A stretch of 64,000 bases of DNA from an uncultured Candidatus Saccharibacteria bacterium (GTDB taxonomy: Bacteria; Patescibacteriota; UBA1384; XYA2-FULL-43-10; 1-14-0-10-43-13): positions 356,933 to 420,932 of the forward strand of contig CAZIYE010000001.1 of the NCBI GenBank assembly GCA_964543385.1, in the 5' to 3' direction. Positions within the stretch are counted from its first letter, which is position 1; every line of letters begins with the position of its first letter. Positions 6,338 to 29,029 of this stretch are shown here, piece after piece. Made by a program: the position numbers and the translations under genes. The notes beneath the pieces were generated by a model. That model searched no databases, was not told the DNA's origin, and was given only the letters and a program-made list of their open reading frames with translations.

Positions 6338-7390
6338 TTATCTCTTAAATTCTTTTGGCAATAACACATTTGAAAGTAAATCAAGATCTTCCAATACCAT
6401 TCCGGCTCCCCTTACAACTGCTGTTAACGGATCATCAGCGATATGCACTTGTGTTTGAGTTTCGATAGCAATACGACGGTCAAGTCCTCGAAGTAATGCT
6501 CCACCACCTGATAAAACTATACCCCTGTCCATAATATCAGCAAGCAATTCTGGCGGAGTCTCTTCCATTGTGACCCTTATACTCTCCAAAATCTGATTAA
6601 GAGATTTTCTGGTCGCTTCACGAATTTGAGTATCATTGACTATAATTTCCTTTGGCAATCCAGAAACAAGATCCCTGCCTCTCATGGGGGCTTCGAGTTT
6701 CTCTTTCATTTCGATAGCAGACCCTACTTTAATTTTAATCTCCTCTGCTGTTCTTTCACCTAAAAGGAGGTTGAATTTGTCTCTGGCATATTGGATTATA
6801 TCTTCATTTAGCTCATCGCCAGCAATGCGTAGCGATCTAGAAGCCACTACTCCCCCAAGAGATATAACAGCTACCTCTGTAGTACCACCACCAATATCAA
6901 CAATCATACTGCCAGAAGCGTCCTGTATGGGCAATCTTGCACCAATTGCCGCGGCAATTGGCTCCTCTATCAAAAAAACCTCACGCGCACCGGCATTGAT
7001 TGCTCCCTCTTCGACAGCTCTTCTCTCTACTTCCGTCACGCTATGCGGAATTCCGATCACTACTCTGGGCCTAGGAATTAATGTAAATCTTTCTCTATGT
7101 ATTCTATCAAAGAAATATTTAAGCATCTGTTCAGTAATCTCAAAGTCCGAAATTACACCGTCAACAAGCGGTCTTACGGCTACTATATGCGCAGGAGTTC
7201 TACCTACCATTCTTTTAGCCTCTTCACCAACAGCCAAAATCTCCTTTGTCCGTTTATTTATCGCCACGACAGAAGGCTCCTTAATCACAATACCCTGGCC
7301 CTTAAGGTATACGAGCGTATTTGCAGTTCCAAGATCGATACCAATATCTTGCGAAAAACGATTTAAAATTTTACTGAAAGGATTTATCAC
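6338..7390 (-). CDS. mreB: actin-like rod shape protein MreB
   Basis: 350 aa; DIGTANT…, …DIGGGTTEVAV… actin-fold ATPase motifs. Confidence 0.9.
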   Translation of the reverse strand: MINPFSKILNRFSQDIGIDLGTANTLVYLKGQGIVIKEPSVVAINKRTKEILAVGEEAKRMVGRTPAHIVAVRPLVDGVISDFEITEQMLKYFFDRIHRERFTLIPRPRVVIGIPHSVTEVERRAVEEGAINAGAREVFLIEEPIAAAIGARLPIQDASGSMIVDIGGGTTEVAVISLGGVVASRSLRIAGDELNEDIIQYARDKFNLLLGERTAEEIKIKVGSAIEMKEKLEAPMRGRDLVSGLPKEIIVNDTQIREATRKSLNQILESIRVTMEETPPELLADIMDRGIVLSGGGALLRGLDRRIAIETQTQVHIADDPLTAVVRGAGMVLEDLDLLSNVLLPKEFKR

Positions 7391-7540
7391 AATAAGAGAT
7401 CCAAATTATATACTAACAAAAAACACCGATATTTTGGAAATGAACTACTGTTAGCTTCATCTCCAAATGTTCAGATTCATTTTTAGTCTAATTCAAATAA
7501 GCCTTATGGTCAAGCAGAGAACAACACCTCTTTTCAAAAA

Positions 7541-8509
7541 TTACATATAATTGTAGACATTTCTCTGATGTTCTGCAGAGTTGACAGCCGGATGAATCTT
7601 GCCATCAGTCCCATATAAGAAGAAAAAGTATTCACTAGGAGTTGGTGACAATGTTGCTTTAATACTGGCAATACCGGGATTGCAGATAGGTCCAATTGGC
7701 AAACCCTTCACCTGATAGGTATTATAACCAGAAATTACACTGGTGAATTCTGATGTTTTTGCCGACTTCCAGAAAGAGTACTCTTTCTGATCATCGACAC
7801 TAAGCTTGGCAAAATTATTTGTGTCTCGACCATATTCAACAGTTGGATCAGACTGTAATTTCATTCCTATTTTGATCCTGTTCTTATATATACCAGCGAT
7901 TAGGGCGCGGTCGGTATCATTAGCTGCTTCACGCTCAACTATCGAAGCGATGATCAGGTCGTCATCAGATAGGTTTAATCCATTGGTACGTTTCGAAAAA
8001 TCGTCAAACATCATTTTCACGATAGCCGATGCAGTCATCTTTGGTTCGAAATAGTAAGTGTCAGGAAAAAGCTTACCTTCGTAGGACTTTGCCGCGATTA
8101 GAAATTCGTTGTAATCAACAATTTTGTTCGCCTCAAGCTTGGCACCAATCTGTTCAGTCCTCCAGCCCTCTGGGATAGTAATTTTAACAACCTTAGTATT
8201 ACCAGAATCGATTATATTGATGATGTCCGACATTGAAGCATTAGCCGGTATTTCATAAAAACCAACTTTTGTTCTTTTGTTAAATATTTTGATTGCATAG
8301 ACATAAAGACTCTTATTTTTTATAAGGTTCTTTGTATACAGCAAGCTTGCCAAGTCTTTGCTAGTTTTGCCCTTTTCAATCTGAATAAGTGTATTTTCCC
8401 TAATGTCTCCGTTGGCTTTCGTATATTCTTTTTCAGCAAGAAATAACAATGACGCGATCGCCACAAAGACACAGAACAAAACAGCAAATATTATGTAAAT
8501 TACTTTCAT
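7541..8509 (-). CDS. mltG: endolytic murein transglycosylase MltG (YceG family)
   Basis: 322 aa; N-terminal TM anchor, YceG-like domain (…IPEGWRTEQIGAKLEA…, …KTYEGKLFPDTYYF…). Confidence 0.8.
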   Translation of the reverse strand: MKVIYIIFAVLFCVFVAIASLLFLAEKEYTKANGDIRENTLIQIEKGKTSKDLASLLYTKNLIKNKSLYVYAIKIFNKRTKVGFYEIPANASMSDIINIIDSGNTKVVKITIPEGWRTEQIGAKLEANKIVDYNEFLIAAKSYEGKLFPDTYYFEPKMTASAIVKMMFDDFSKRTNGLNLSDDDLIIASIVEREAANDTDRALIAGIYKNRIKIGMKLQSDPTVEYGRDTNNFAKLSVDDQKEYSFWKSAKTSEFTSVISGYNTYQVKGLPIGPICNPGIASIKATLSPTPSEYFFFLYGTDGKIHPAVNSAEHQRNVYNYM

Positions 8510-8961
8510 GAACTAATATCCGGTTTTATATATTGATCATTCTTCGAATGTTCAAGAAAACGTTCAAGGATGATTATTGCTGCCATCTCATCCACTTCGC
8601 CACTTTTTCTCTGCACTTTCTTATCATTAGAGATAAATAGGTTCTGTGCCTCTGATGAAGAAAAATTTTCTTCTTGAAAATAGATTGCTAGACTTGTGCT
8701 CCGTGAAAGTTCATCTGCAAATTTTCTGATCCTGCTATCCAATGTCCCGGCTTCTCCCTGAGATCTAGTTGGCAAACCAATTATTATGCCCGAATAATTT
8801 TCCTGTTCAACGATCTTTTTAATCTCTTCTAAAACAAAGGCATCTCCTTTGCTGGCGTCGATAACACCTAATCCCTTCGGGAAAATAGCACCCGAAGCTA
8901 AGCCAACTCTTTTCGTGCCGTAATCTATAGATAGATATTTATTGTATATTTTGTCTTCCAT
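8506..8961 (-). CDS. ruvX: Holliday-junction resolvase-like RNase YqgF/RuvX
   Basis: 151 aa; …LSIDYGTKRVGLASG… RNase H-like motif; 4-nt overlap with mltG. Confidence 0.8.
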   Translation of the reverse strand: MEDKIYNKYLSIDYGTKRVGLASGAIFPKGLGVIDASKGDAFVLEEIKKIVEQENYSGIIIGLPTRSQGEAGTLDSRIRKFADELSRSTSLAIYFQEENFSSSEAQNLFISNDKKVQRKSGEVDEMAAIIILERFLEHSKNDQYIKPDISS

Positions 8962-9038: not shown

Positions 9039-10829
9039 TTATTTATTATAATCAAACTCAACACTTATTTTATCCGCAATCATTGGGGTTCTTTGCCAGA
9101 AGTTCGGCAAGATATTTATAGAAGAAGAATCTACGCCGTCAACTGAACTTAGATATGATTTGGCTGCTTTTACATCTTTATTTTTAATATTGCTCTTAAC
9201 CATATCAACGTCGATCTTCTTGCCAACCTTACCAGTGAAAACAGCCTCTAGCTCCATTTCCCCGTTATCGATATTACTTGTCTTAACCTTATAAACGATA
9301 TTACTCTTTTCAGGATTGATAATCATTTCGTTAACATCTATCTTGCCTTCTATTCCCTTTGTGACTGTCTTCTTAATATCATCCTCCAGAAAACCCAGAA
9401 CAAAGAATTTGATTTTCATTTTAAAATCAAAGCTATCTGATTCATCGTCAACCTTTTTAGAAGCATCTTGCGAAACAGTCTCCGAGCTTATTTGACCTTC
9501 TAGAATCTTCAAATTACTTTCTGTAGCCTTGGCGGCTAATTCTTTCTTAGCCAATTCAAGTAGCTCAGCCTTTATATCAGCTTCCGCTTTTGTTAAGTCT
9601 TCCTCTGTTACAATTTTAACTTCTTTGTTAGTGCCACCAGTAAAAGCAGCTTTGCTCTCTGCAAAAACCTTAGTACTAACAAAACCTGCAACATCAAACT
9701 TTCTGGCTGAAAGATTGAAAGTATCACCAGATTTGTCAGCCACAACCTCAACATCAATAGTGCCAGCAGTAGTTTTAAGAACTGGAATATTATTTTCTAT
9801 CGCTGCAGTCGCCTTTGCAACTGGAACTATAACTTCGGCTTGTAAGATAAATTCTTTTGAATCACTAACTATTTTAGTGCCTTTTGCTAGTTTGATAGAA
9901 CTTTGAAAATTATAAAGGTTAGATATCGTGACAGTGCCTTTTGCCTTTTCCCCTACATTTTTTTTACCAGTAGAAGCAACTGTCTTGGTAGATTCCTTTT
10001 CCAAGTCCACAATTTTTCCAGGAGCTGCCAATGTCTCATTGGCAGATTTTATATCCCGGCCTACAAGCACACTGACTTTTTCGTCTATGTCTCTGGTCTT
10101 TAAAATTACTGTTGCTTTTGCACTAGGCAAGAAATAAACTCCGGAACCGATGATCACTACAAACAAAGCTGCGACAATTATAGCAAATAAGATTCTCCTC
10201 GAACCCTCTGTCTTGATATGTTTCTTCTTTATTATTGGATCCTGGTTATCTTGCTTCATGTAGGCTTTATCATTATTTATATATTGATCTTTATCATCAT
10301 AATTTTCCTCACTGTCTATTTCAACTTGTTGATCAATTTCGTCCTCGTAGTGCTCTATGCTTCTTTTCTTGAATTGAGGCTCTTCTTCATTATCATCTTC
10401 TACAGAATCATCAACATTTGTTTCCTCCACCCCTTCGTCAGAATCAACTTTGGCATTTAGATTAGCCAGAGAATAACGTTTGTAGGCATTGACCTTCAGG
10501 CCCATATCGCTATTAGAATTATCTTGACCTGATTTTAGTTCTTCGGCCACCGGCTTTATATGGGCCTTCTCTGCTTCAGCAACATTCGAAAAAACACTGA
10601 TTTTCAATTGATTGGCTAAATTCGCAGTAATTTTATCAGCAGAGACCAATGCTGTCGCTTTGCCATGAGTCTTAGCACTACGCATAAGCAACTTAAGATT
10701 GATGATACTCTGACCGATAGTTCCGCCACGAGGAACAACCAAAATGACAACCTCATTCTGGCTTTTCCTTATCTTATCAATGACAGAGGTTATTTCCTCA
10801 TCTGCTTCTAAATATATAATGTCGTTCAT
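9039..10829 (-). CDS. hypothetical membrane protein (cytoplasmic N-domain, acidic linker, one TM, long extracytoplasmic tail)
   Basis: 596 aa; Asp/Glu-rich linker, single TM (ILFAIIVAALFVVIIGSGVYF), Lys/Thr-rich repeat-like C-terminal region; sits where ftsZ would normally follow ftsA. Confidence 0.5.
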   Translation of the reverse strand: MNDIIYLEADEEITSVIDKIRKSQNEVVILVVPRGGTIGQSIINLKLLMRSAKTHGKATALVSADKITANLANQLKISVFSNVAEAEKAHIKPVAEELKSGQDNSNSDMGLKVNAYKRYSLANLNAKVDSDEGVEETNVDDSVEDDNEEEPQFKKRSIEHYEDEIDQQVEIDSEENYDDKDQYINNDKAYMKQDNQDPIIKKKHIKTEGSRRILFAIIVAALFVVIIGSGVYFLPSAKATVILKTRDIDEKVSVLVGRDIKSANETLAAPGKIVDLEKESTKTVASTGKKNVGEKAKGTVTISNLYNFQSSIKLAKGTKIVSDSKEFILQAEVIVPVAKATAAIENNIPVLKTTAGTIDVEVVADKSGDTFNLSARKFDVAGFVSTKVFAESKAAFTGGTNKEVKIVTEEDLTKAEADIKAELLELAKKELAAKATESNLKILEGQISSETVSQDASKKVDDESDSFDFKMKIKFFVLGFLEDDIKKTVTKGIEGKIDVNEMIINPEKSNIVYKVKTSNIDNGEMELEAVFTGKVGKKIDVDMVKSNIKNKDVKAAKSYLSSVDGVDSSSINILPNFWQRTPMIADKISVEFDYNK

Positions 10830-10880
10830 AGTATGGTTATAAAGTGACCAGTTATTTCTTCTATATTCCCCTATCTACCC

Positions 10881-12131
10881 TTAGCTTCTCAATCCTTCTG
10901 TAATTCTTTCAACCAGCCCATCTACCACACCCTCTTCTCCGGCGAGATCAATTGCTAAATTTGCAAGAGCCATTGGAGTAATATCTTGAGAACCAGTCAA
11001 CTTGCCCGTCTCGTCCTTTATAGAGATAAGTTGCTTTGGTTTTATAAAGTCAACTTTCGGCTGTTTTGCAAAAGGCAATCTTTTCACCCAGCTCTTTTTC
11101 TCTAAATACTCCTGAATATCTGGCAATAATGAACCGCCCCCACAAAGCAAAATCTTTGATGGCAAAAGCTCGATATTTGCAAAGTCTTCTAAAGCTAATT
11201 CTACACCCGCTAGCCAAACTTCACAATCATTTTCTATTGCTTTCTTTATCTTCGCATATATTTCAGAATCAGTCGGTATTTTTCCTGCTGAATAGTCAAT
11301 CTTCAGTTTCTCTGCCTCTGCAAATGTCTTATCAAAGGCATCAGCAATCGATTTAGTGAAAACACGTCCGCCGATAGCAAACATCTTAGTGCCCTCGACT
11401 CCGCCGCCTCGAACAACAGCAATATCAGTGGTACCTCCACCAATATCAATAAAGATTGAGGAAAATTCTGCTGAATCCTCAAGCCCGACACACCTAGCCA
11501 CCGCATACGGTTCAGCGGCGATAGAGAGCAGATCTAGTCCGAGCTCTTCGGCTATCGTCTGTAGGGCACCAAGATGAACAATAGGAGCAAAGGCATTGAA
11601 AATACCTACCTGGATATCTCTTCCCTGAAAACCAACAGGATTGGTCACCTTGTAGCCATCTATTCGAACATCAACAACTGCAGAGTTAACGAGTTTAACA
11701 TCAAGCTCAGCCTGACCAGTCTCCCAAGCGAGCTCGCTCCGAGTCTTCTCAAATGCCCTGCTTTGGACCTGTTCTATAATTTCTCTCAATTCTTTGACTG
11801 TAATTTTTTCTTTGGGTTTTTCTCGTGTGTAATGGACTGTTGTAGTGGCTCCCTTTACCAATTCTCCGGCAATTCCAATAACACATTGCTTTGGCGAAAC
11901 CTGAGCTACCTCGAAGGCATCTTCAAGCGCCTCATTGCAATTTTTTATGACTCCATAAATGTCGGTAACCCTTCCTCCTTGCATATCAGAAAGCTGCTGT
12001 TTCTTCTTCGAAGTGCCAACAACGTAAGCTACGTCACTCTCTATACGAAAAATAAGTACTTTGACATACTCAGTACCTATATCGAGTGATATAGCATAAT
12101 TTTTTCTACTTTTCTTCGCAAATAGTCCCAC
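10881..12131 (-). CDS. ftsA: cell division protein FtsA
   Basis: 416 aa; actin-like ATPase motifs (…ISLDIGTEYVK…, …IDIGGGTTDIAVV…); GTG start with GAGGGG SD; TATAAT -10 on the minus strand at ~12158-12163. Confidence 0.85.
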   Translation of the reverse strand: MGLFAKKSRKNYAISLDIGTEYVKVLIFRIESDVAYVVGTSKKKQQLSDMQGGRVTDIYGVIKNCNEALEDAFEVAQVSPKQCVIGIAGELVKGATTTVHYTREKPKEKITVKELREIIEQVQSRAFEKTRSELAWETGQAELDVKLVNSAVVDVRIDGYKVTNPVGFQGRDIQVGIFNAFAPIVHLGALQTIAEELGLDLLSIAAEPYAVARCVGLEDSAEFSSIFIDIGGGTTDIAVVRGGGVEGTKMFAIGGRVFTKSIADAFDKTFAEAEKLKIDYSAGKIPTDSEIYAKIKKAIENDCEVWLAGVELALEDFANIELLPSKILLCGGGSLLPDIQEYLEKKSWVKRLPFAKQPKVDFIKPKQLISIKDETGKLTGSQDITPMALANLAIDLAGEEGVVDGLVERITEGLRS

Positions 12132-12180
12132 AAAAACCCCTCATTTTAAGGTATAGATATATTATAACAAAAATTTCGTT

Positions 12181-12223
12181 AAATAAAACAACTGAGTCGG
12201 TCCGCACAATGGCGAACCGACTC
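12181..12223 (-). terminator. intrinsic terminator of the pyrF-pyrE island operon
   Basis: Minus strand: hairpin gagtcggt-tcgccattgtgcgg-accgactc followed by AGTTGTTTTATTT. Confidence 0.6.
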
Positions 12224-12261
12224 GAGTTTGTCCGTATAGGACTATCACCCCCCTTCGATAT

Positions 12262-13011
12262 TTACGCAGCGTTCATGGCCGCTTCCAGAATATCCCATTC
12301 CAGTTTGGGATGGCGCACAACCTGACCGGCAGCAATCAGCGCTGCGACCGTCGGATCATCCTGATGATATTCTTCTGTCGGCCGGAAAATGTCGCATAGT
12401 ATGGGAATCGGCGGTTTGCCGGGCCGACAAAATTCGTGTGTTTCCGGCCACGCCCGATCAACAGCGCAGATCACATATTGGACGATTCCGCCACCCTCTT
12501 CGATGAGATCTGCCATCTTACCGGTGCTTTTGCCATTATTGAAAACGTCTTCTCCGATGGCATAGCGTTTACCGGGGATAATTGGGTGACGACCTGCTTT
12601 GAACATCGAGGCTTTACGGGTGCTCTCCGTTTCCAGCGCAGTCACTATTTCATCCGGAAACCCGTATTCAATCTGGTCGTAGCCACGGTGCCAGCAGATA
12701 TGCGCGATCGCCTCTGAGAGAGTGAGACCGCCCATTGGTGAACCGTAGATCACCTCAGGAAATCCGTTCGCGTGCAGCAGGCCGAACATCATCTCGGCAA
12801 ACTGTACATTATCCGCCGTCCCTTCGACCATAGCGTAATTGTAGTACGCCGCGCCAACCCAGTGATGGATTTCATCATATTTGGCCGAATACTGTACCAA
12901 CGGCCCAACGATTTTACCATCAGGGGTTGACTTCGATTGATAGGACCCGCGGCGTTGCCGCATAAGCAGCAGCAAGCGATCTTGCTCCTGCTGATTTGGT
13001 GAATATAACAC
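12262..13011 (-). CDS. pyrE: orotate phosphoribosyltransferase-like type I PRTase (high-GC island)
   Basis: PRPP-binding motif GKRYAIGEDVFNNGKSTG aligned with the flexible-loop region (…TESTRKASMFKAG…), as in OPRTases. Likely start is GTG at 13011, preceded by AGGAGG and placed 7 nt after the pyrF TAG stop (translational coupling). The longest ORF in the track (to 13101) overlaps pyrF. Confidence 0.6.
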   Translation of the reverse strand: MLYSPNQQEQDRLLLLMRQRRGSYQSKSTPDGKIVGPLVQYSAKYDEIHHWVGAAYYNYAMVEGTADNVQFAEMMFGLLHANGFPEVIYGSPMGGLTLSEAIAHICWHRGYDQIEYGFPDEIVTALETESTRKASMFKAGRHPIIPGKRYAIGEDVFNNGKSTGKMADLIEEGGGIVQYVICAVDRAWPETHEFCRPGKPPIPILCDIFRPTEEYHQDDPTVAALIAAGQVVRHPKLEWDILEAAMNAA

Positions 13012-13024
13012 GATATCGCCTCCT

Positions 13025-13852
13025 CTAGGCGGCTTCTCTGGCCGCCAGACCTTCTTCGATCTCACGCACAGCGCGCGCCACAACACCAGCGATGTCACCA
13101 TCGGCCGGCTTGGTCAGCGGACGCCCCATTACCAGGAAGTCGGAGCCATCGGCGATTGCGATTGCAGGGGTGACGACCTGCTTCTGGTCCTGAACATCTC
13201 CATCGGCGAAGCGGATGCCCGGCGTCACGACCAGGAAATCCCGACCGCAAGCGGCCTTGATCGCCTTGACATGCTGAGCCGAGGCTACAACACCATCGAG
13301 ACCCGCTTCCTTAGCGAGAAGCGCAAGCTGTACTACTACATACTGCACGGCTGCTTTCTCGTTTTCGAAATTGATCCCGTCGGGGCTCTTGTTCATAAGC
13401 CCGAGCTGAAAGAGGTTCGCGTAGTCGAGGCTCGTCAACACAGTGACGCCGATGACGAGTGGCCGCATTGAGAGGCCAAGCGCCACGGCTTCGGCTTCGG
13501 CGGCTTCACGTGCCGCTTTCATCGCCTCAAGCCCGGAAAGACAGTGCATGTTGATCATGTGCACGCCCAGACGGACAAGAGACTTGACCGCGCCCACCAC
13601 CGTGTTCGGAATGTCGGAAAGCTTACCGTCAAGGAAGACGGCCCCACCGATCTCGATAATGTGGCGAATGACTGAGGAGAACTCGCCGGTCATAATGAGT
13701 TCCAGGCCAACCTTAAAGAACTTGACGCCCTTCGCGGCCATCTGGTCCACCATGGCGATTGCCTTTGCCGGCGAATCGAAGTCCAACGGGATGATGATCA
13801 TCCCTGCTACGCTTGCGCATAGCTGAAGCAACCATTGACGTGTTGTCTTCAC
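13025..13852 (-). CDS. pyrF: orotidine-5'-phosphate decarboxylase (high-GC island)
   Basis: OMPDC signature VFLDGKLSDIPNTV (…D-x-K-x2-D-I-P-N-T…); GTG start with GGAGAAGGAGAAGG SD; strongly G+C-rich compared with flanking genes. Confidence 0.75.
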   Translation of the reverse strand: MKTTRQWLLQLCASVAGMIIIPLDFDSPAKAIAMVDQMAAKGVKFFKVGLELIMTGEFSSVIRHIIEIGGAVFLDGKLSDIPNTVVGAVKSLVRLGVHMINMHCLSGLEAMKAAREAAEAEAVALGLSMRPLVIGVTVLTSLDYANLFQLGLMNKSPDGINFENEKAAVQYVVVQLALLAKEAGLDGVVASAQHVKAIKAACGRDFLVVTPGIRFADGDVQDQKQVVTPAIAIADGSDFLVMGRPLTKPADGDIAGVVARAVREIEEGLAAREAA

Positions 13853-14040
13853 TTAGATTACCTTCTCCTTCTCCATATCATTAGATACGGAACACAGCCC
13901 CGATCGAGTCGGGGTCAAGTTGTCGTTCGGTTGTTAACCGATATGGTACAAAAAAAGCTCCGCTATCTTCGAATCATAGCCAAGCCCTCTTATGGTAGTA
14001 ATATAGAGAAAAACTATATGGAAAGCAACAAATATGGTCC

Positions 14041-14075
14041 TATTAATGCGAAAGCGGTCCCCATACGGGGACCGC
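14041..14075. terminator. hairpin terminator downstream of cdsA, weakly bidirectional
   Basis: Perfect hairpin gcggtcccc-atac-ggggaccgc; minus strand is followed by TTTCGCATT. Confidence 0.45.
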
Positions 14076-14083
14076 TCTGCTAA

Positions 14084-14938
14084 TTAACCGACCAGGCTAA
14101 GGATGATATATGCAATTGGCGCTGCATATATCATACTATCGAGCCTGTCGAGTATCCCTCCATGACCGGGGAGAAGGTCACCGGAATCCTTTTTCTTGAA
14201 ATTCCTTTTCAAAAAAGATTCAACCAGGTCTCCGACCTGACCGAGGAGTCCGATAACTGGCCCAAGAAGGACCAGAAACGGGTTATGGAGAGTCATAGCG
14301 AATGCAATTGCAAATGCCAGTGCTGCCACAAAGCCAGCAACCGAACCACCGATGGTCTTCCCCGCGCTGACATCTGGGCAGAGCTTGGCGCTCTTTATCC
14401 GGCTACCGATCAGGTAAGCCGTAATGTCTATTGCCCAAATCGTAACCAGGAATACTAACAGTAGCACAGGCCCCTTGGACAAACTCAATCCCCCGATTTC
14501 AACATGTCCTGGAATAGACCTGATAGCGACTAAGAAGCTTGGCAGCACACTGACATAGACCGCAAACCTGAGAAGGTTCGTAGGTTCTAGGTAGAACTTT
14601 CTATCGAGAAGTTCTGATCCTAGAAAAATGACAGTGAACACAGCAAGCATACAGAGTGGCGCAGACCACAGACTATCAGCCAAAGCAACAGTGCTTAGCA
14701 TGAAAGTGGCGACAGCCATGAAAATCCATGGCAACTTTACAATTCCTTTTACTTCCATCAAGTCACAGTATTCGCTCGCCATGATGGCGATCAAAACAGC
14801 AACAATAATGGAGAATAACAGGTCGTTGCAAAAAAAGATGGCAACAACTGCTAGGGGTATCCCAATCACAGTTACTACCAATCTTTGCAGGAATTTTTTC
14901 ATATCCCTACCCCCGAAACAGCGTGCCACCCTGGTCAC
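14084..14938 (-). CDS. cdsA: phosphatidate cytidylyltransferase
   Basis: CdsA signature …KRNFKKKDSGDLLPGHGGILDRLDSMIY…; probable true start at 14902 (MKKFLQRL…). Confidence 0.85.
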   Translation of the reverse strand: MTRVARCFGGRDMKKFLQRLVVTVIGIPLAVVAIFFCNDLLFSIIVAVLIAIMASEYCDLMEVKGIVKLPWIFMAVATFMLSTVALADSLWSAPLCMLAVFTVIFLGSELLDRKFYLEPTNLLRFAVYVSVLPSFLVAIRSIPGHVEIGGLSLSKGPVLLLVFLVTIWAIDITAYLIGSRIKSAKLCPDVSAGKTIGGSVAGFVAALAFAIAFAMTLHNPFLVLLGPVIGLLGQVGDLVESFLKRNFKKKDSGDLLPGHGGILDRLDSMIYAAPIAYIILSLVG

Positions 14939-14967
14939 GTCTTATGTTTGGTCGTCGTATTTAGCGA

Positions 14968-15020
14968 CCCATAATAATACAAATAAATGGCACTATTGTC
15001 AAGACAATATGCCATTTATT
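14968..15020 (-). terminator. intrinsic terminator downstream of alaS
   Basis: Nested palindrome AAATAAATGGCA-cTATTGTC-aag-GACAATAt-GCCATTTATT, followed on the minus strand by GTATTATTATG. Confidence 0.5.
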
Positions 15021-15044
15021 ACAGAACCATCTATAGTTAAAATA

Positions 15045-16808
15045 TTATTTGAGAACAGCCTTTATTCGTCGAACACCAGAGGAAGAACTCTCTTCTTTTT
15101 GTATTTCAAAATGACCTAGCTCTCCAGTACGACTGGCATGAGGCCCACCACAAATTTCCTTTGAAAATTCACCAATAGTATATACTTTTACTTTTTCACC
15201 ATATTTTGAATCAAATACGCCCATCGCTCCCTGCGCTTTAGCCTCGTCCACACTCATTTCTGTCATATCGATAGATAAATTTTTCTGGATTTGCTCATTG
15301 ACCAAATCCTCCACTTGCTTGATCTGTTCAGGAGTCATCTTCTCCGGATGCGAAAAATCAAACCTCAATCGATCAGGTGTAATATTAGAACCTTTTTGAT
15401 AAACATGATCTCCTAAAACTTTTCGAAGTGCTGCGAGCATCAGATGAGCTGCCGTATGGAGTCTCTTCGTCTCTTCACCAGCATCAGCAAGTCCACCTTT
15501 AAACATACCAGAAGAGGCGGTACGAGATTTTTCTTGATGATCCTTATAAAAAATATTGAATTTATCTATAGCATCATCAGCCAATAACACTTTCCTGACA
15601 TTTAATTCTTCAACAGAAATTTCTAATGGGATACCTCTTGATTGATATAGATCAAAAAGTTCATGGCCGTCTACTTTAACACCATTTTTCTCAAAATGCT
15701 TTTGATAAGAGTTGATTTCGATCAGTCCGGCGATAAGAGTTTTTCTGAATTTGTTCTCCTCTTTTTCAATTTCAGAAAGAATAGTTTCCTTATTGAAGTT
15801 ATACACCCCTTCATAAATCTCAAAGACCTTCTCAGCAATTTTGGTTGTGAAATTTTCACTAATTGCAAGCTGATGGCCTTTAACAATCGCCCGACGAATT
15901 AACCTTCTTAAGACATATCCCCTGTCTTTATTAGATGGTACCACTCCATCATTTATCATAAATGTAGCAGCCTTTAGATGGTCTGCAATAATACGAAAAT
16001 CTTTCTCATTTTCAGAATATTTTTTGCCAGAAATTTGCTCAATTTCTTTTAAAATTAGTTCAAAAAGGTCAGTTTCAAAGACATTATCTCGTCCATCAAG
16101 GTATGACAATATTCTCTCTAATCCACCACCAAAATCAACATTCTTTTGAGTTAAAAGTTCGAATTTGCCATCCTCTGCTTTGTTGTACTCCATAAAAACA
16201 TCGTTGCAAATTTCCACCCAATTTTTGTCTTTTGGATCATATTTTTGAGGTGCTACTCCCCCACCAGTCCAAACAAACATCTCAGTATCAGGGCCACATG
16301 GTCCGGTTACTCCCGCCGGCCCCCACCAGTTATCTTCATAGCCAAGAAAAGCGATTCTTTTCTCCGGGATTCCCAAAGCTTTCCAAATGGCAGCAGACTC
16401 ATTATCTTTTGGGATGCCACTCGATGGATCACCCTCGAAACAGGTAACTGCCAAATTTTTAGGATCAATTTTCAATACCTTGGTTAGAAATTCAAATATG
16501 TATTCTATAGCGTCTTTTTTGAAGTAATCACCAAGCGACCAATATCCAAGCATCTCAAAGAAGGTGCAATGAGTCTTGTCGCCAACTTCATCAATATCGC
16601 CGGTCCTGATACATTTCTGAACATTAGTAAGCCTTTTACCGGCAGGGTGCTTTTCACCTATTAAATATGGCACCAGTGGGTGCATACCAGCAGTTGTAAA
16701 TAAGACTGTGGGATCATTTTCTGGCACCAAAGAAGCAGAAGGAAGCACAAAGTGCCCCTTCTCTTTAAAAAACCCAATAAATTTATTTCTTAACTCTCTT
16801 GAATCCAT
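15045..16808 (-). CDS. alaS: alanyl-tRNA synthetase, short form (catalytic plus editing-motif region, no C-Ala domain)
   Basis: 587 aa; N-terminal …FKEKGHFVLPSASLVPENDPTVLFTTAGM…; HxxxH (HTAAHLM) and CGGPH editing/zinc motifs near the C-terminus. Confidence 0.85.
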   Translation of the reverse strand: MDSRELRNKFIGFFKEKGHFVLPSASLVPENDPTVLFTTAGMHPLVPYLIGEKHPAGKRLTNVQKCIRTGDIDEVGDKTHCTFFEMLGYWSLGDYFKKDAIEYIFEFLTKVLKIDPKNLAVTCFEGDPSSGIPKDNESAAIWKALGIPEKRIAFLGYEDNWWGPAGVTGPCGPDTEMFVWTGGGVAPQKYDPKDKNWVEICNDVFMEYNKAEDGKFELLTQKNVDFGGGLERILSYLDGRDNVFETDLFELILKEIEQISGKKYSENEKDFRIIADHLKAATFMINDGVVPSNKDRGYVLRRLIRRAIVKGHQLAISENFTTKIAEKVFEIYEGVYNFNKETILSEIEKEENKFRKTLIAGLIEINSYQKHFEKNGVKVDGHELFDLYQSRGIPLEISVEELNVRKVLLADDAIDKFNIFYKDHQEKSRTASSGMFKGGLADAGEETKRLHTAAHLMLAALRKVLGDHVYQKGSNITPDRLRFDFSHPEKMTPEQIKQVEDLVNEQIQKNLSIDMTEMSVDEAKAQGAMGVFDSKYGEKVKVYTIGEFSKEICGGPHASRTGELGHFEIQKEESSSSGVRRIKAVLK

Positions 16809-26481: not shown

Positions 26482-26569
26482 TGGTGGGCAGAACAGGACT
26501 TGAACCTGCACGGGATTGCTCCCACTACCACCTCAAGGTAGCGTGTATACCAATTTCACCACCTGCCCC
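26482..26569 (-). tRNA. tRNA-Leu(GAG)
   Basis: GGGGCAGGTGGTGAAATTGG…anticodon loop TTGAGGT…long variable arm…GGTTCAAGTCC…GCCCACCA. Confidence 0.85.
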
Positions 26570-26576
26570 TATTTTA

Positions 26577-26653
26577 TGGTGCGCGCTGAGGGACTTGAAC
26601 CCCCGACATCCTCGGTGTAAACGAGGCGCTCTAGCCAACTGAGCTAAGCGCGC
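26577..26653 (-). tRNA. tRNA-Val(TAC)
   Basis: GCGCGCTTAGCTCAGTTGGCTAGAGC…loop TTTACAC…GGTTCAAGTCCC…GCGCGCACCA. Confidence 0.85.
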
Positions 26654-26779
26654 ATGATACAAAAAAACGGGCACCAACCCGAATAATACTCTTTAACAAT
26701 ATTCAAGATGGTTTAATAATTTAAGTAACTAATACAGACTATAACAAATATCTCTCAAAATGTCAAAACAGAAAAACGT

Positions 26780-26864
26780 TGGTGCCGAAGGCGGGATTTG
26801 AACCCGCAATCCGTGAGGAACACGGTTCTGAACCGTGCGCGTATGCCAATTCCGCCACTCCGGC
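26780..26864 (-). tRNA. tRNA-Leu(CAG)
   Basis: GCCGGAGTGGCGGAATTGG…loop TTCAGAA…long variable arm…GGTTCAAATCCCGCC…TTCGGCACCA. Confidence 0.85.
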
Positions 26865-26892
26865 ATTTTCCGATTCCCTTCCCCTTTTCACT

Positions 26893-28404
26893 TTATCTTT
26901 TTACCCTTTTTTCCTTTATATACCATTTCGAGATATTGTCATACCTGGAATAAGGTTGTGCACCTAAAACAGTGCCAATGCCTTTGATATTATCCTTGGC
27001 CCCAAAATTATAACTTATTGGGTCATAAAGTTGTATCAAATATTCTTTAGTAACCAGATCAAAGAATTCATCATATTTTTTATTCCTAGCCGCAACATCA
27101 GTTACCATTCTTGCATCCTCTAATAGAATATCAGAATTCTTATCAGACCAGCCTGCAAAGTTTTGGTCATTTAGCTGACTAGAATGCCAAAAAGGATACG
27201 GATCACGATCATAAGCGAAATCAAATCCATAGAGCAGTAAATCATAGTTCTTGGCTGCTAAAATATCCTGAAGCTTAACAGCACTGAAATAGAAAACTTC
27301 TAGTTGAATATTTTGGCTCACAAAATTTTTCTTTATTTCCTCTGCTTTATCGCGCTGAAGCGGAGAGTCAAGAGTTGTGAGACCAATACTGATGGCTGTA
27401 TCAAATTTTTGACCTTCAAGTATTTTCTGGCGTACAGCTTTATCTTTTAATTTATCGCTTCTTGAATTAAAAATTAAACCCAACCTACGCGACGATCTAA
27501 AATCATATTTATTTCCGATTGATGATGCCTCCCCGAAAAGACCATCTATCTTGTCATCATCTGTGAAGGCATTTTCAGCATTGCCCCTTTGGGGATAAAT
27601 CTTTATACGTAAATCTTCGATAAATACCTTGCTACCAAAATAATTATTGTTGCGTTTCAATCTTATTTCTGTAATCTTGTCAGCTTTCTTCAATACTTTA
27701 ACGAATTCAAAAGCCCCTGAACCAACTGGCTTTCTGGAAAAATCACTGCTCGATACAGCAGCTGGGAGTATGCCAAAGTTACAGTTATATATAAATGGTC
27801 CGTAAGCACTCGGTAACTCCATTAGAATAGTATACTGATCTATCACGCTGATCTGAGTATCCACCCATCTTTTATTCAATGGACTTTTCAATTCTGAGGC
27901 CTTAATAGAATCGATAGTATAAGCAACATCTTGAGCAGTGAATTGTAAATCATTAACAAATTTTACATCCTGCCTTAGATAAAAAGTATATTTTTTACCA
28001 TCAGGAGAAATCTCATATCTTTCGGCAAGTTCCGGCATGATATTGCCATCAGCAGATATTCGTATAAGACTAGAAAACATTAGGCTAGAAAGACTTTTCT
28101 CAGCATCAGTTTGAGCCAATATCGGATTTAAATATTTTATTTCTCCCAATACTGCCTCAGTGTACTGCCCCCCAACCGCTGGCTCTATGACAGTCCAACC
28201 TAAATACGATCTGTAAAACTTGAACCCCAAGAGGGATATAGAAACAAAAAGGAGCGTAAACATTAAATATCGCTCCTTTTTTGCCATCAAACCATAGCTC
28301 GTACTAATATTTTTCAATATACTGAATAAAAGTGAAAAAGGTTTCTTTAGAAACCCAAAAAAATTACTATCCCTCCAAGAGGAAATTTTAAATTTATACT
28401 TCAT
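26893..28404 (-). CDS. ABC transporter substrate-binding protein, family 5 (oligopeptide/nickel type), solitary
   Basis: 503 aa; SBP_bac_5-like core (…YTFYLRQDVKFVNDLQFTAQDVAYTI…); probable start at internal MAKKERYLMFTLLFVSI (signal anchor). No permease gene adjacent. Confidence 0.7.
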   Translation of the reverse strand: MKYKFKISSWRDSNFFGFLKKPFSLLFSILKNISTSYGLMAKKERYLMFTLLFVSISLLGFKFYRSYLGWTVIEPAVGGQYTEAVLGEIKYLNPILAQTDAEKSLSSLMFSSLIRISADGNIMPELAERYEISPDGKKYTFYLRQDVKFVNDLQFTAQDVAYTIDSIKASELKSPLNKRWVDTQISVIDQYTILMELPSAYGPFIYNCNFGILPAAVSSSDFSRKPVGSGAFEFVKVLKKADKITEIRLKRNNNYFGSKVFIEDLRIKIYPQRGNAENAFTDDDKIDGLFGEASSIGNKYDFRSSRRLGLIFNSRSDKLKDKAVRQKILEGQKFDTAISIGLTTLDSPLQRDKAEEIKKNFVSQNIQLEVFYFSAVKLQDILAAKNYDLLLYGFDFAYDRDPYPFWHSSQLNDQNFAGWSDKNSDILLEDARMVTDVAARNKKYDEFFDLVTKEYLIQLYDPISYNFGAKDNIKGIGTVLGAQPYSRYDNISKWYIKEKRVKR

Positions 28405-28407
28405 AAT

Positions 28408-28626
28408 TTAAGCAAAGAATACAGAGAAGAGGGCAATGGTACAGAACAAAACAGCAACTACTATAGTAGCGTAAAATAAGAACTTTTCGACCCCGCGACG
28501 TGAACGGTAGACATTTCCCTCTCCTCCAAAAGCCATACCTAAACCCGAACCGCGTTGTTGCAGCAATACTAAAACGATTAGCAATACTGCAAAAATAATT
28601 TGTAAAATTTTAAATGTGTCAATCAT
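28408..28626 (-). CDS. secG: preprotein translocase subunit SecG
   Basis: MIDTFKILQIIFAVLLIVLVLLQQRGSGLGMAFGG… typical SecG. The track ORF extends to 28794 but that would overlap tRNA-Trp, so start is taken at 28626. Confidence 0.7.
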   Translation of the reverse strand: MIDTFKILQIIFAVLLIVLVLLQQRGSGLGMAFGGEGNVYRSRRGVEKFLFYATIVVAVLFCTIALFSVFFA

Positions 28627-28633
28627 AATTTTT

Positions 28634-28708
28634 TGGAGCGGGTAACGGGAGTCGAACCCGTATTTCGTCCTTGGCAAGGACGCATAATAGCCGCTATACG
28701 ATACCCGC
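28634..28708 (-). tRNA. tRNA-Trp(CCA)
   Basis: GCGGGTATCGTATAGCGG…loop TGCCAAG…GGTTCGACTCCCG…CCCGCTCCA. Confidence 0.85.
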
Positions 28709-28799
28709 AAATATTTAACTTTACAATGACCAATTCTAAAACAATTTCTCAAGAAATTCAATCCTTGAAGAAAAATGAACCTAACAATAACCAATTTCT

Positions 28800-28873
28800 T
28801 GGAGGCCTGGTCGGGAATCGGACCCGACTACGCGGTTTTGCAGACCGCTGCCTAACCTCTCGGCCACCAGGCC
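28800..28873 (-). tRNA. tRNA-Cys(GCA)
   Basis: GGCCTGGTGGCCGAGAGG…loop CTGCAAA…GGGTCCGATTCCCG…CAGGCCTCCA. Confidence 0.85.
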
Positions 28874-28954
28874 AAAAACTTCAAGCTTCGTTTAAGTTCA
28901 AGGCAAACCTTTAATAGAAATGGCCTGCCATGAATCCAGCTTCGCTGTGGTTCA

Positions 28955-29029
<75 letters not shown>

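Follow-up and report, generated by a model that had tools for sequence, protein, structure and literature searches.

Organization of the Locus

In the 64-kb stretch of DNA analysed here (the window), part of a small and AT-rich genome of the Patescibacteria (CPR), the slot between alaS and ftsA holds a short GC-rich island that comprises pyrF, for an orotidine-5'-phosphate (OMP) decarboxylase, and a gene for a phosphoribosyltransferase (PRTase), hereafter PRTL, which resembles orotate phosphoribosyltransferases (OPRTases); cdsA lies upstream (Table 1). The PyrF translation contains AVFLDGKLSDIPNTV and the PRTL reading frame GKRYAIGEDVFNNGKSTG. No other pyrimidine-pathway gene was found among the window ORFs checked (26 by Pfam, the rest by eye), in agreement with a preliminary description of this DNA. 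The genes probably form one transcription unit, in which PRTL would be translated from the strong AGGAGG directly behind the pyrF stop codon. The junction reads TAG-AGGAGG-cgatatc-GTG, and the GTG starts noted earlier for both genes stand; in the P0002 contig, pyrF and PRTL overlap by 4 nt. The G-rich Shine-Dalgarno (SD) sequences of the island had been contrasted with AAGGAG-type SDs of host genes, a distinction that does not hold: the SD region upstream of the pyrF GTG (GGAGAAGGAGAAGG) itself contains AAGGAG, and most host genes have a weak SD or none.

The transcription unit would end at a terminator-like hairpin and T-run that closes the island on its 3' side, some 60 nt upstream of ftsA, where the preliminary description had placed a terminator of the island's own. 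At the other end, the spacer between cdsA and pyrF is predicted to be highly structured, with an RNA fold of -83 kcal/mol vs -57.2 +/- 4.0 for shuffled sequences (z = -6.4), and may act as a terminator or attenuator. An Rfam scan of the spacers and leader gave chance-level matches only (mir-32 and a Na+ riboswitch, both under gathering score), and no PyrR site was found in the same regions. The true start of cdsA is likely the ATG at 14902, and a promoter-like site upstream of this gene is a possible promoter for cdsA-pyrF-PRTL.

Table 1. Features of the cdsA-pyrF-PRTL locus, in the direction of transcription (window positions).
Feature	Position	Strand	Basis
Promoter-like TTGACA-17-TATTAT, upstream of cdsA	14974-15002	-	Consensus match alone, 11/12
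cdsA, phosphatidate cytidylyltransferase	14084-14938	-	PF01148, 162.6 bits
Structured 231-nt spacer, cdsA to pyrF	13853-14083	-	RNA fold
cdsA-terminal hairpin	14053-14076	-	Within cdsA-pyrF spacer
Second hairpin, then T7	~13990-13950	-	Within cdsA-pyrF spacer
Third hairpin	~13895-13915	-	Within cdsA-pyrF spacer
pyrF, orotidine-5'-phosphate decarboxylase type 1, 275 aa, GTG start	13025-13852	-	HMM scores and catalytic motif
13-nt spacer with AGGAGG SD (13019-13024) right after pyrF TAG, 7 nt before PRTL GTG	13012-13024	-	Sequence
PRTL, 249-aa type I PRTase of a Patescibacteria-specific OPRTase-like family, GTG start; predicted to convert orotate + PRPP to OMP	12262-13011	-	Profile, fold, pyrF linkage or fusion
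Intrinsic-terminator-like hairpin, 12-bp stem (8 G-C pairs), 6-nt loop, then T-run AGTTGTTTTA	12194-12223	-	Sequence

Composition of the Island

The GC-rich segment previously noticed between ftsA and cdsA is real: 750-nt intervals within 12200-13900 have a GC content of 0.531-0.588, vs a mean of 0.385 (sd 0.030, maximum 0.481) outside 12-15 kb in the 64-kb window (z ~5.9). The background, at 38-39%, is higher than the one-third estimated by eye. Of the extent first assigned to the segment (12181-14083), the rise in GC is confirmed but not the limit at cdsA, since a weaker rise runs on through that gene (14084-14902/14938), which is moderately enriched (GC 0.475). The excess sits at synonymous sites, with a GC3 of 0.69 in pyrF, 0.56 in PRTL and 0.51 in cdsA; ftsA, alaS, slt and orf596 have 0.31-0.35 and all plausible window genes 0.26-0.42. 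The synonymous-site composition of pyrF and PRTL (0.56-0.69) is thus atypical of its surroundings, as in genomic islands.

This contrast is not unique to the window. At 41 of 43 CPR loci the pyrF+PRTase module exceeds its flanks in GC (median +0.079), and GC at codon positions 1 and 2 is also higher in the module at 32 of 34. The pyrF genes of the window and of the relative L001 have the same GC3 (0.69 and 0.70) in hosts of differing GC despite a dS of 0.48, and so give no sign of amelioration.

The OMP Decarboxylase

PyrF scores above the curated cutoffs of three models, namely NF001273 (210.7 bits, cutoff 193), TIGR01740 (156.5, cutoff 92.3) and PF00215 (146, cutoff 27), the whole-protein equivalog score placing it in the type 1 OMP decarboxylases. 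It carries the D-x-K-x-x-D motif as DGKLSD (FLDGKLSDIPNT), the upstream Lys in FFKVGLEL (FKVG) and an Asp in IIPLDFDS, residues that we take to be catalytic as in established OMP decarboxylases. The original assignment was therefore correct, and pyrF is, by sequence, a genuine gene for a type 1 OMP decarboxylase, with a predicted OMP to UMP activity. Comparison with L001 (88% nucleotide identity, dN 0.035, dN/dS ~0.07) indicates that the gene is under purifying selection.

The origin of this pyrF is less easily traced. Among 5.8 billion sequences, no match above 50% identity was found outside its own small clade, and a search for a donor lineage, as originally suggested, accordingly gave none closer than ~50%. 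The nearest relatives beyond the clade (45-50% identity) are taxonomically mixed (Armatimonadota, Omnitrophota, Pacebacteria), and the best named ones are non-CPR, e.g., Armatimonadota at 48-50% over ~85% of the length. The closest full-length pyrF with readable context (P0008, 48%) has a PRTase as its neighbour, in a gene context like that of CPR. The pyrFs linked to PRTL elsewhere in the CPR were considered as its source and rejected, being at most 40% identical vs 45-50% for general bacterial type 1 PyrFs.

PRTL and Its Family

PRTL had been labelled a PyrE homolog, and the label itself does not survive curated thresholds. The protein has no match in a Pfam scan (including PF00156 at E <= 0.01) and falls far below the PyrE cutoffs (TIGR01367, 26.7 vs 150.25 bits; TIGR00336, 18.1 vs 106.8); other family members likewise remain under cutoff (24-49 bits). 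The broader claim of an OPRTase-like partner was upheld by profile, fold, and linkage or fusion with pyrF. PRTL has a type I PRTase fold with an acidic PRPP-binding motif and is nearer to OPRTases than to other PRTases; the top solved structures found with the family profile are OPRTases (4paw, 2.2e-9; 2wns, 8.4e-8), and fold matches also include APRT and PurR. Two invariant elements have OPRTase counterparts in the alignment, Arg186 being matched to the Arg of the (D/N)R motif and Y56-x-N58-F to the SPIYID hood segment, the roles of the hood, this Arg and the flexible-loop lysines being presumably those given in the OPRTase literature. The PRPP loop is altered, reading NN(F/G)(S/K)(T/S)T instead of TTGGT, and there are 8-11 additional residues in the flexible loop. 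From its linkage and fusion to pyrF (below) and its profile matches, the most likely activity of PRTL is that of an orotate phosphoribosyltransferase. In the clade of the window protein, which includes P0002 and P0003, ~15 near-invariant columns depart from the family, including E120D, K121E, F160G, S161K and N185D. In the alignment, the family K121 lies close to the flexible-loop lysines that are catalytic in OPRTases, and such departures mean that activity could be altered or lost in this sub-clade.

The family comprises at least 478 protein clusters and was defined by two alignments (A1 and A2), the second of 120 sequences, in all of which, the window protein included, 14 columns are invariant. 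An exhaustive HMMER search yielded 301 representatives, of which 230 have E-values below 1e-10, and the window PRTL matches more than 150 representatives with E-values of 1e-37 to 1e-16 over approximately residues 10-248. Those members that carry a taxon name all fall in the Patescibacteria (Uhrbacteria, Paceibacterota, Staskawiczbacteria, Parcubacteria).

A recurrent property of the family is a tie to OMP decarboxylase, either as a probable operon partner or within a fused protein. Scans of genome and metagenome contigs for PRTL with a single protein gave no match; with a narrower PRTL alignment, pyrF adjoined PRTL at 57 of the 68 metagenome loci with enough sequence (immediately upstream in 55, immediately downstream in 2) and was absent from the adjacent position in 11. 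The two genes are adjacent in all eight contigs inspected singly (including L007, L014, L087, L088, L089, P0002 and P0003). In these seven, every partner PyrF but that of L014 passes the equivalog cutoff for type 1 or type 2. All nine long members tested have an N-terminal OMP decarboxylase domain fused to a C-terminal PRTL. The PyrF domains of these fusions are both type 1-like and type 2, which suggests that the fusions arose independently.

Probable Exchange in the alaS-ftsA Slot

How did the pair come to lie between alaS and ftsA? In 14 relatives the slot has no insert, and others carry unrelated cargo there. The module is present in L001, L004, L007, L013 (pyrE only) and L014, and absent in L003, L005, L006, L008 and L009. 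Four types of PRTase, barely or not alignable with one another, follow pyrF in the slot (stand-alone in L013), and the pyrF genes of slot-mates are just 41-42% identical while FtsA is 80% identical.

The comparison with L001 is particularly informative. In ftsA, alaS and slt, third-position identity is 0.34-0.37 and dS is saturated and thus undefined, against a dS of 0.48 in pyrF, which bears out the earlier view that the island is foreign to its surroundings. Nucleotide homology (88%) crosses the pyrF-PRTL spacer and breaks off exactly where PRTL begins, at its start codon (13009). L001 has this pyrF too, with an unchanged SD and start context, and behind it lies another gene, a pyrE of more canonical type; PRTL and this pyrE were rejected as orthologues, as BLASTP aligns the PRPP motif alone (E 0.003). 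A recognisable pyrE after the same pyrF argues for functional equivalence of PRTL.

The variable cargo probably includes cdsA. In L003 the slot holds cdsA alone, with a GC content of 0.51 vs 0.40 for the remaining locus, and the gene order cdsA-pyrF-PRTL recurs in the P0003 contig. Divergence discordant with the flanks and a patchy distribution, both marks of genomic islands, support horizontal acquisition. At the island borders there are no integrase, tRNA or mobile-element genes and no att-like or flanking direct repeats beyond chance. No viral-contig relatives of PRTL or pyrF were found, nor a plasmid DNA match to the whole island or a phage match, and a mobile-element explanation thus has no support.

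Origin and Function of the Module

The most probable reading is that the segment is horizontally exchanged cargo, carrying pyrF and an OPRTase-like PRTL, in a variable alaS-ftsA slot of a Berkelbacteria/Saccharibacteria-like Patescibacterium. Its core would be a two-gene module in which PRTL forms OMP from orotate and PRPP and PyrF converts it to UMP, and we infer that its physiological use is orotate salvage. The module would have arrived in, or been replaced in, this lineage after it had diverged from those relatives that have been sequenced, probably through recombination with other Patescibacteria of the same alaS-ftsA synteny, and a non-CPR host is an unlikely source. It had been proposed before that the pair was captured from a high-GC, non-CPR donor, which might be the host of the symbiont. 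The strong GC and GC3 excess and the non-CPR affiliation of the best named pyrF matches fit that proposal, but the named PRTL family members are all Patescibacteria, the module recurs across the phylum, analogous modules occupy the same slot of related CPR genomes, the P0008 pyrF has its PRTase neighbour in a CPR-like context and, among the 5.8 billion sequences searched, no protein above 50% identity lies outside the small clade; we consider such a capture very unlikely. Vertical inheritance of a module that is intrinsically GC-rich, through its amino acids, codon-use selection or GC-biased gene conversion, would account for the GC excess at CPR loci generally and for the equal pyrF GC3 in two hosts. 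It is nonetheless quite unlikely given the unsaturated pyrF dS beside three saturated flanking genes, the patchy occurrence among the closest relatives, the divergent pyrFs of slot-mates with similar FtsA and the swap of the second gene for a non-homologous one. A chimeric assembly or a contaminating fragment is hardly credible as an explanation of the island. The change in composition is abrupt, and the contig of L002, the nearest GTDB relative, starts at a match to window position 12205, inside the terminator hairpin and hence at the island boundary; however, three independent assemblies have GC-rich genes between the same host genes (alaS-...-pyrF-pyrE-ftsA in L001, alaS-pyrF-PRTL in P0002, cdsA-pyrF-PRTL in P0003), and these shared junctions argue against misassembly.

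The function of PRTL admits a further alternative, that it is a PRTase for another base or a PyrR/PurR-like PRPP- or nucleotide-binding regulator merely travelling with pyrF. Scores below every curated cutoff, the altered PRPP loop, the longer flexible loop, the lack of K121 in the window clade, and APRT and PurR among the fold matches all point this way. PyrF acts on OMP, and its need for this substrate, the consistent linkage and fusion to OMP decarboxylase, the first rank of OPRTases by both profile and fold, and the replacement by a recognisable pyrE in the same pyrF context of L001 weigh against it, and we judge it unlikely. An OPRTase-like PRTL in horizontally exchanged cargo remains the reading that we prefer.

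Implications for Patescibacteria

CPR/Patescibacteria are usually described as incapable of nucleotide synthesis. CPR genomes mostly lack nucleotide synthesis (PMC4742961), with near-complete pyrimidine pathways in some Parcubacteria (PMC5220378), and no literature was found linking CPR, Patescibacteria or Saccharibacteria to orotate or OPRTase. We tentatively suggest, as a possibility short of an even chance, that pyrF+PRTL is a self-contained orotate-salvage cassette that circulates among Patescibacteria by recombination and, owing to frequent transfer or GC-biased conversion, retains a GC-rich composition of its own in any host genome. Nucleotide-auxotrophic episymbionts could then make UMP from orotate that hosts or neighbours release, with PRTL as an uncharacterised structural class of OPRTase (NNFSTT 5'-phosphate loop, longer catalytic loop, extra N- and C-terminal elements). 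If true, a widespread two-gene unit from orotate to UMP would be a specific nutritional link between episymbionts and their hosts or communities. As the family falls under Pfam and NCBIfam thresholds, and is often labelled “hypothetical protein” at NCBI, the OPRTase step in CPR may be under-counted by surveys of pathway completeness. Both the alaS-ftsA slot, in which one PRTase partner has repeatedly given way to a non-homologous one, and the GC excess that the module shows throughout the phylum could be of use to population genomics of recombination in ultra-small bacteria. No new biochemical principle is involved, the reaction and fold being classical.

Comparison With Known Systems

Genomic islands and recombination hot spots between core genes share with this island an atypical GC and GC3, patchy presence, a fixed position (here alaS-ftsA) and divergence discordant with the flanks. 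Unlike typical genomic islands, it lacks an integrase, a tRNA attachment site, flanking repeats and phage/plasmid relatives, and its cargo is just two or three housekeeping-type genes. Fused UMP synthases of OMPDC-OPRT order are known (NF004034, PRK05500; Leishmania UMP synthase, 3qw4), whereas the window genes are separate; in the CPR fusions the PRTase half is a PRTL-family domain instead of a canonical PyrE, and these proteins match NF004034 only across the OMPDC half.

For adenine phosphoribosyltransferase genes there would be no cause for linkage or fusion to pyrF. The PRTL family profile matches this enzyme (E. coli Apt, 2dy0) with E-values ~10,000-fold weaker than those for OPRTases, and the aligned region of APRT has no equivalent of the OPRTase-type Arg186. 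By profile, the closest solved structure is the OPRTase 4paw (H. pylori HP1257; TIGR01367, pyrE_Therm), to which PRTL is only 13% identical. The 4paw-type enzymes are ~190 aa long with a 5'-phosphate loop of TTG-x-(S/T), whereas PRTL has ~250 aa and reads NNGKST (NNFSTT in the family), with ~50 extra N-terminal residues, an insertion of ~11 residues in the flexible loop and a C-terminal extension bearing the family-invariant K236 and W239.

A GC-Rich pyrF-PRTase Segment

The GC-rich island at ~12.2-13.9 kb is one instance of a module found across the Patescibacteria (CPR), in which pyrF is paired with PRTL, a divergent and poorly annotated family of OPRTase-like phosphoribosyltransferases (PRTases), and it occupies a recombination-prone slot between alaS and ftsA. 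The preliminary description, a GC-rich pyrF-pyrE pair possibly captured from the host, was right in its observation and partly right in its interpretation.

Mean GC of the whole window is 39.2%, and 750-nt windows outside 12-15 kb average 0.385 (sd 0.030, maximum 0.481), a background of ~38% rather than the one-third first estimated. Across 12200-13900 such windows reach 0.531-0.588, ~5.9 sd higher. The excess is located at synonymous positions: GC3 is 0.69 in pyrF and 0.56 in PRTL, vs. 0.31-0.35 in ftsA, alaS, slt and orf596 and 0.26-0.42 across all plausible window genes. The GC-rich island is therefore confirmed, but its proposed extent holds only in part, as cdsA, upstream of pyrF, is also anomalous, more weakly (GC3 0.51). 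Both motifs quoted earlier were found in translations of the minus-strand ORFs, both GTG-started, and the junction sequence and the island's own terminator are as claimed.

Features of the window and of the alaS-ftsA slot in relatives (L, loci of relatives or other CPR; P, proteins)
Feature	Position	Strand	Description
pyrF	13025-13852	minus	275 aa; GTG start; motif VFLDGKLSDIPNTV
PRTL (second ORF)	12262-13011	minus	249 aa; GTG start; motif GKRYAIGEDVFNNGKSTG
pyrF/PRTL junction		minus	TAG-AGGAGG-N7-GTG (sequence reading)
Terminator-like 12-bp hairpin + T-run	12223-12194	minus	closes pyrF-PRTL unit
Slot	12132-15044		alaS-ftsA gap
cdsA-pyrF spacer	13853-14083	minus	231 nt
Hairpin then T7	~13990-13950		in spacer, ~100 nt upstream of pyrF
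Promoter-like site	15002-14974		TTGACA-17-TATTAT, upstream of cdsA
Class II tRNA synthetase	446-2365	minus	Lys/Asp/Asn-type
Alanyl-tRNA synthetase	15045-16808	minus	587 aa
Seven tRNA genes	26485-29029	minus	groups 26485-26864 and 28637-29029
L001 slot	PRTase 7058-7741		alaS-paaX-like-pyrF-pyrE-ftsA
L004 slot	PRTase 7903-8631		pyrF + pyrE_Therm-like gene
L013 slot	PRTase 9112-9816		pyrE_Therm-like gene alone
L007 and L014 slots			pyrF + PRTL
P0002 contig			alaS-pyrF-PRTL
P0003 contig			cdsA-pyrF-PRTL
L087 (Staskawiczbacteria contig)	9119-16114		pyrF-PRTL and purine genes

The suggested contrast with AAGGAG-type SDs in host genes fails. The SD region of pyrF (GGAGAAGGAGAAGG) itself holds AAGGAG, and host genes (e.g., starts at 2365, 5056, 10829, 16808, taking the start codons of the longest ORFs) mostly begin with ATG and a weak or absent SD, whereas the island genes combine GTG with a strong SD. 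The promoter-like site upstream of cdsA is a strong match. The cdsA-pyrF spacer folds much better than shuffled sequences (z = -6.4) and had no match in Rfam; its hairpin and T7 may act in termination or in attenuation of the pyrimidine type.

The alaS-ftsA Slot in Relatives

Scanning GTDB species representatives for FtsA gave 80 loci, labelled Candidatus Berkelbacteria, Saccharibacteria or Patescibacteria, most of which keep the order slt-alaS-[slot]-ftsA-orf596. Slot content differs among loci of this Berkelbacteria/Saccharibacteria-like clade (L001-L081). In 14 loci alaS and ftsA are separated by an empty gap of 52-422 nt, L003 has only cdsA there, and many others contain assorted unrelated, mostly unidentified ORFs; pyrimidine genes occur in only some of the closest relatives. 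Three closer metagenome contigs (L001 and those of P0002 and P0003) have the window-type pyrF clade, the window-type PRTL clade or both at the same place, and because these independent assemblies place the genes alike, an assembly chimera is ruled out. In the nearest relative from GTDB (L002) the contig begins inside the terminator hairpin (its positions 1-70 match window 12205-12132), and its assembly thus breaks exactly at the island boundary; across ftsA and part of orf596 its DNA is only ~77% identical to the window, despite 96% FtsA protein identity.

Other features of the window include a C-terminal DUF2000 domain (residues 507-639) on the class II tRNA synthetase, an unusual fusion, and an SBP_bac_5 solute-binding protein gene between the two tRNA groups; the 64-kb window has no rRNA genes. 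The alanyl-tRNA synthetase has catalytic and tRNA_SAD domains only and is far shorter than typical bacterial enzymes, with relatives' versions at 598-630 aa.

Origin of the Module

How did the segment arrive? The window was compared with L001 gene by gene.

Divergence between the window and L001
Gene	Nucleotide identity	dN	dS	Third-position identity
pyrF	88% (857 nt)	0.035	0.48	0.73
ftsA	0.69	0.16	undefined (saturated)	0.36
alaS	0.60	0.37	undefined (saturated)	0.37
slt	0.57	0.38	undefined (saturated)	0.34

Homology begins 13 nt before pyrF and stops at 13009, at the start codon of the gene that follows; in L001 that gene is a different, recognisable pyrE (TIGR00336, 73 bits) with only the PRPP motif in common with PRTL. 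Because synonymous divergence is limited in pyrF and saturated in its flanks, and homology stops at that codon, the two pyrF copies have a common ancestor much younger than the chromosomes, and the partner gene was exchanged. Where slot-mates share 80% FtsA identity, their pyrFs are just 41-42% identical, and the PRTases that follow pyrF (alone in L013) are of four types with scant or nil mutual alignment (window, L001, L004, L013), which looks like repeated non-orthologous replacement. Repeated recombination between chromosomes of shared synteny would fit both observations. No integrase, repeats, tRNA, or phage or plasmid relatives of the island were found, and the transfer route is thus only inferred. 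The dS contrast and GC3 excess uphold the view that this is a foreign GC-rich module, but a host donor is not supported, since no close non-CPR relative was found and all known PRTL sequences come from CPR.

GC enrichment is also a general CPR phenomenon. Among 43 CPR loci flanked by 6 kb or more (GC noted for L084, L087-L089 and L090-L169), module GC exceeds the flank in 41 (median excess +0.079; >+0.10 in 15), the window's +0.17 lying at the upper end. Module GC3 is above the flank median in 25/34 loci and above every flanking ORF in 18/34, but where the flanks themselves are richest in GC (e.g., L145, L162, L166) it only equals or falls below theirs; eight individually inspected loci behave likewise. 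The module seems to keep its own composition. The first two codon positions are also GC-richer in 32/34 loci, so part of the excess reflects amino-acid composition, and the GC3 part is compatible with either frequent transfer or biased gene conversion.

Predicted Function of PyrF and PRTL

The OMP decarboxylase assignment is secure (PF00215, 146 bits; NF001273, 210.7 vs. cutoff 193; TIGR01740, 156.5 vs. 92.3; D-x-K-x-x-D present). Among 5.8 billion proteins, a small clade (P0004-P0006) is 80-93% identical to PyrF; the best matches outside it are 45-50% identical and taxonomically mixed, including Armatimonadota, Omnitrophota and Pacebacteria. The module plausibly makes UMP from orotate. CPR in general are reported to lack nucleotide synthesis (PMC4742961), and some have near-complete pyrimidine pathways (PMC5220378). 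In L087, pyrF-PRTL lies directly upstream of a purC/purE fusion, purB and purL (purine de novo genes), and in some CPR the module therefore goes with genuine synthesis of nucleotides, not with salvage alone.

PRTL had no Pfam hit, its top NCBIfam match was pyrE_Therm (26.7 bits vs. cutoff 150), and alignment to PDB sequences was confined to the PRPP motif region. Word-indexed searching found only three proteins; exhaustive HMMER searching gave 301 cluster representatives (230 at <1e-10), mostly 235-265 aa, and a family profile 478 clusters. All taxon-bearing names are Patescibacteria, labelled "hypothetical protein" or "phosphoribosyltransferase" by NCBI and "orotate phosphoribosyltransferase" or "adenine/guanine PRTase-like" by IMG.

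PRTL adjoins pyrF in most contigs inspected. Upstream sequence was sufficient in 68 of 80 metagenome loci: in 55 of these pyrF directly precedes PRTL, in 2 it directly follows, and the other 11 have no adjacent pyrF. Three long CPR contigs also show the order pyrF-PRTL, with 14-36 nt between the two genes. About 15 representatives have 384-573 aa, and 9/9 tested carry an N-terminal OMP decarboxylase domain, some type 2 above the equivalog cutoff and others type 1-like. PyrF partners exceed type 1 or type 2 cutoffs, L014 excepted.

The family profile ranks OPRTases first (Helicobacter pylori 4paw, 2.2e-9; human domain 2wns, 8.4e-8; best APRT, 4e-5). The earlier PyrE-like reading thus stands on profile ranking and pyrF linkage and fusion, but not on the curated pyrE cutoff or Pfam. 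Window PRTL groups with P0002 and P0003 in a divergent sub-clade that keeps 14/14 invariant residues yet departs at ~15 near-invariant ones (including K121E), and PRTL is for this reason called OPRTase-like: it is predicted to work like an OPRTase and is not a PyrE family member by curated thresholds. In profile alignments the invariant R186 lines up with the (D/N)R arginine of OPRTases, and Y56-x-N58-F with their hood segment SPIYID. Canonical OPRTases have a TTG-x-T 5'-phosphate loop, whereas the family has NNFSTT (NNGKST in the window), a flexible loop ~11 residues longer and family-specific N- and C-terminal regions.
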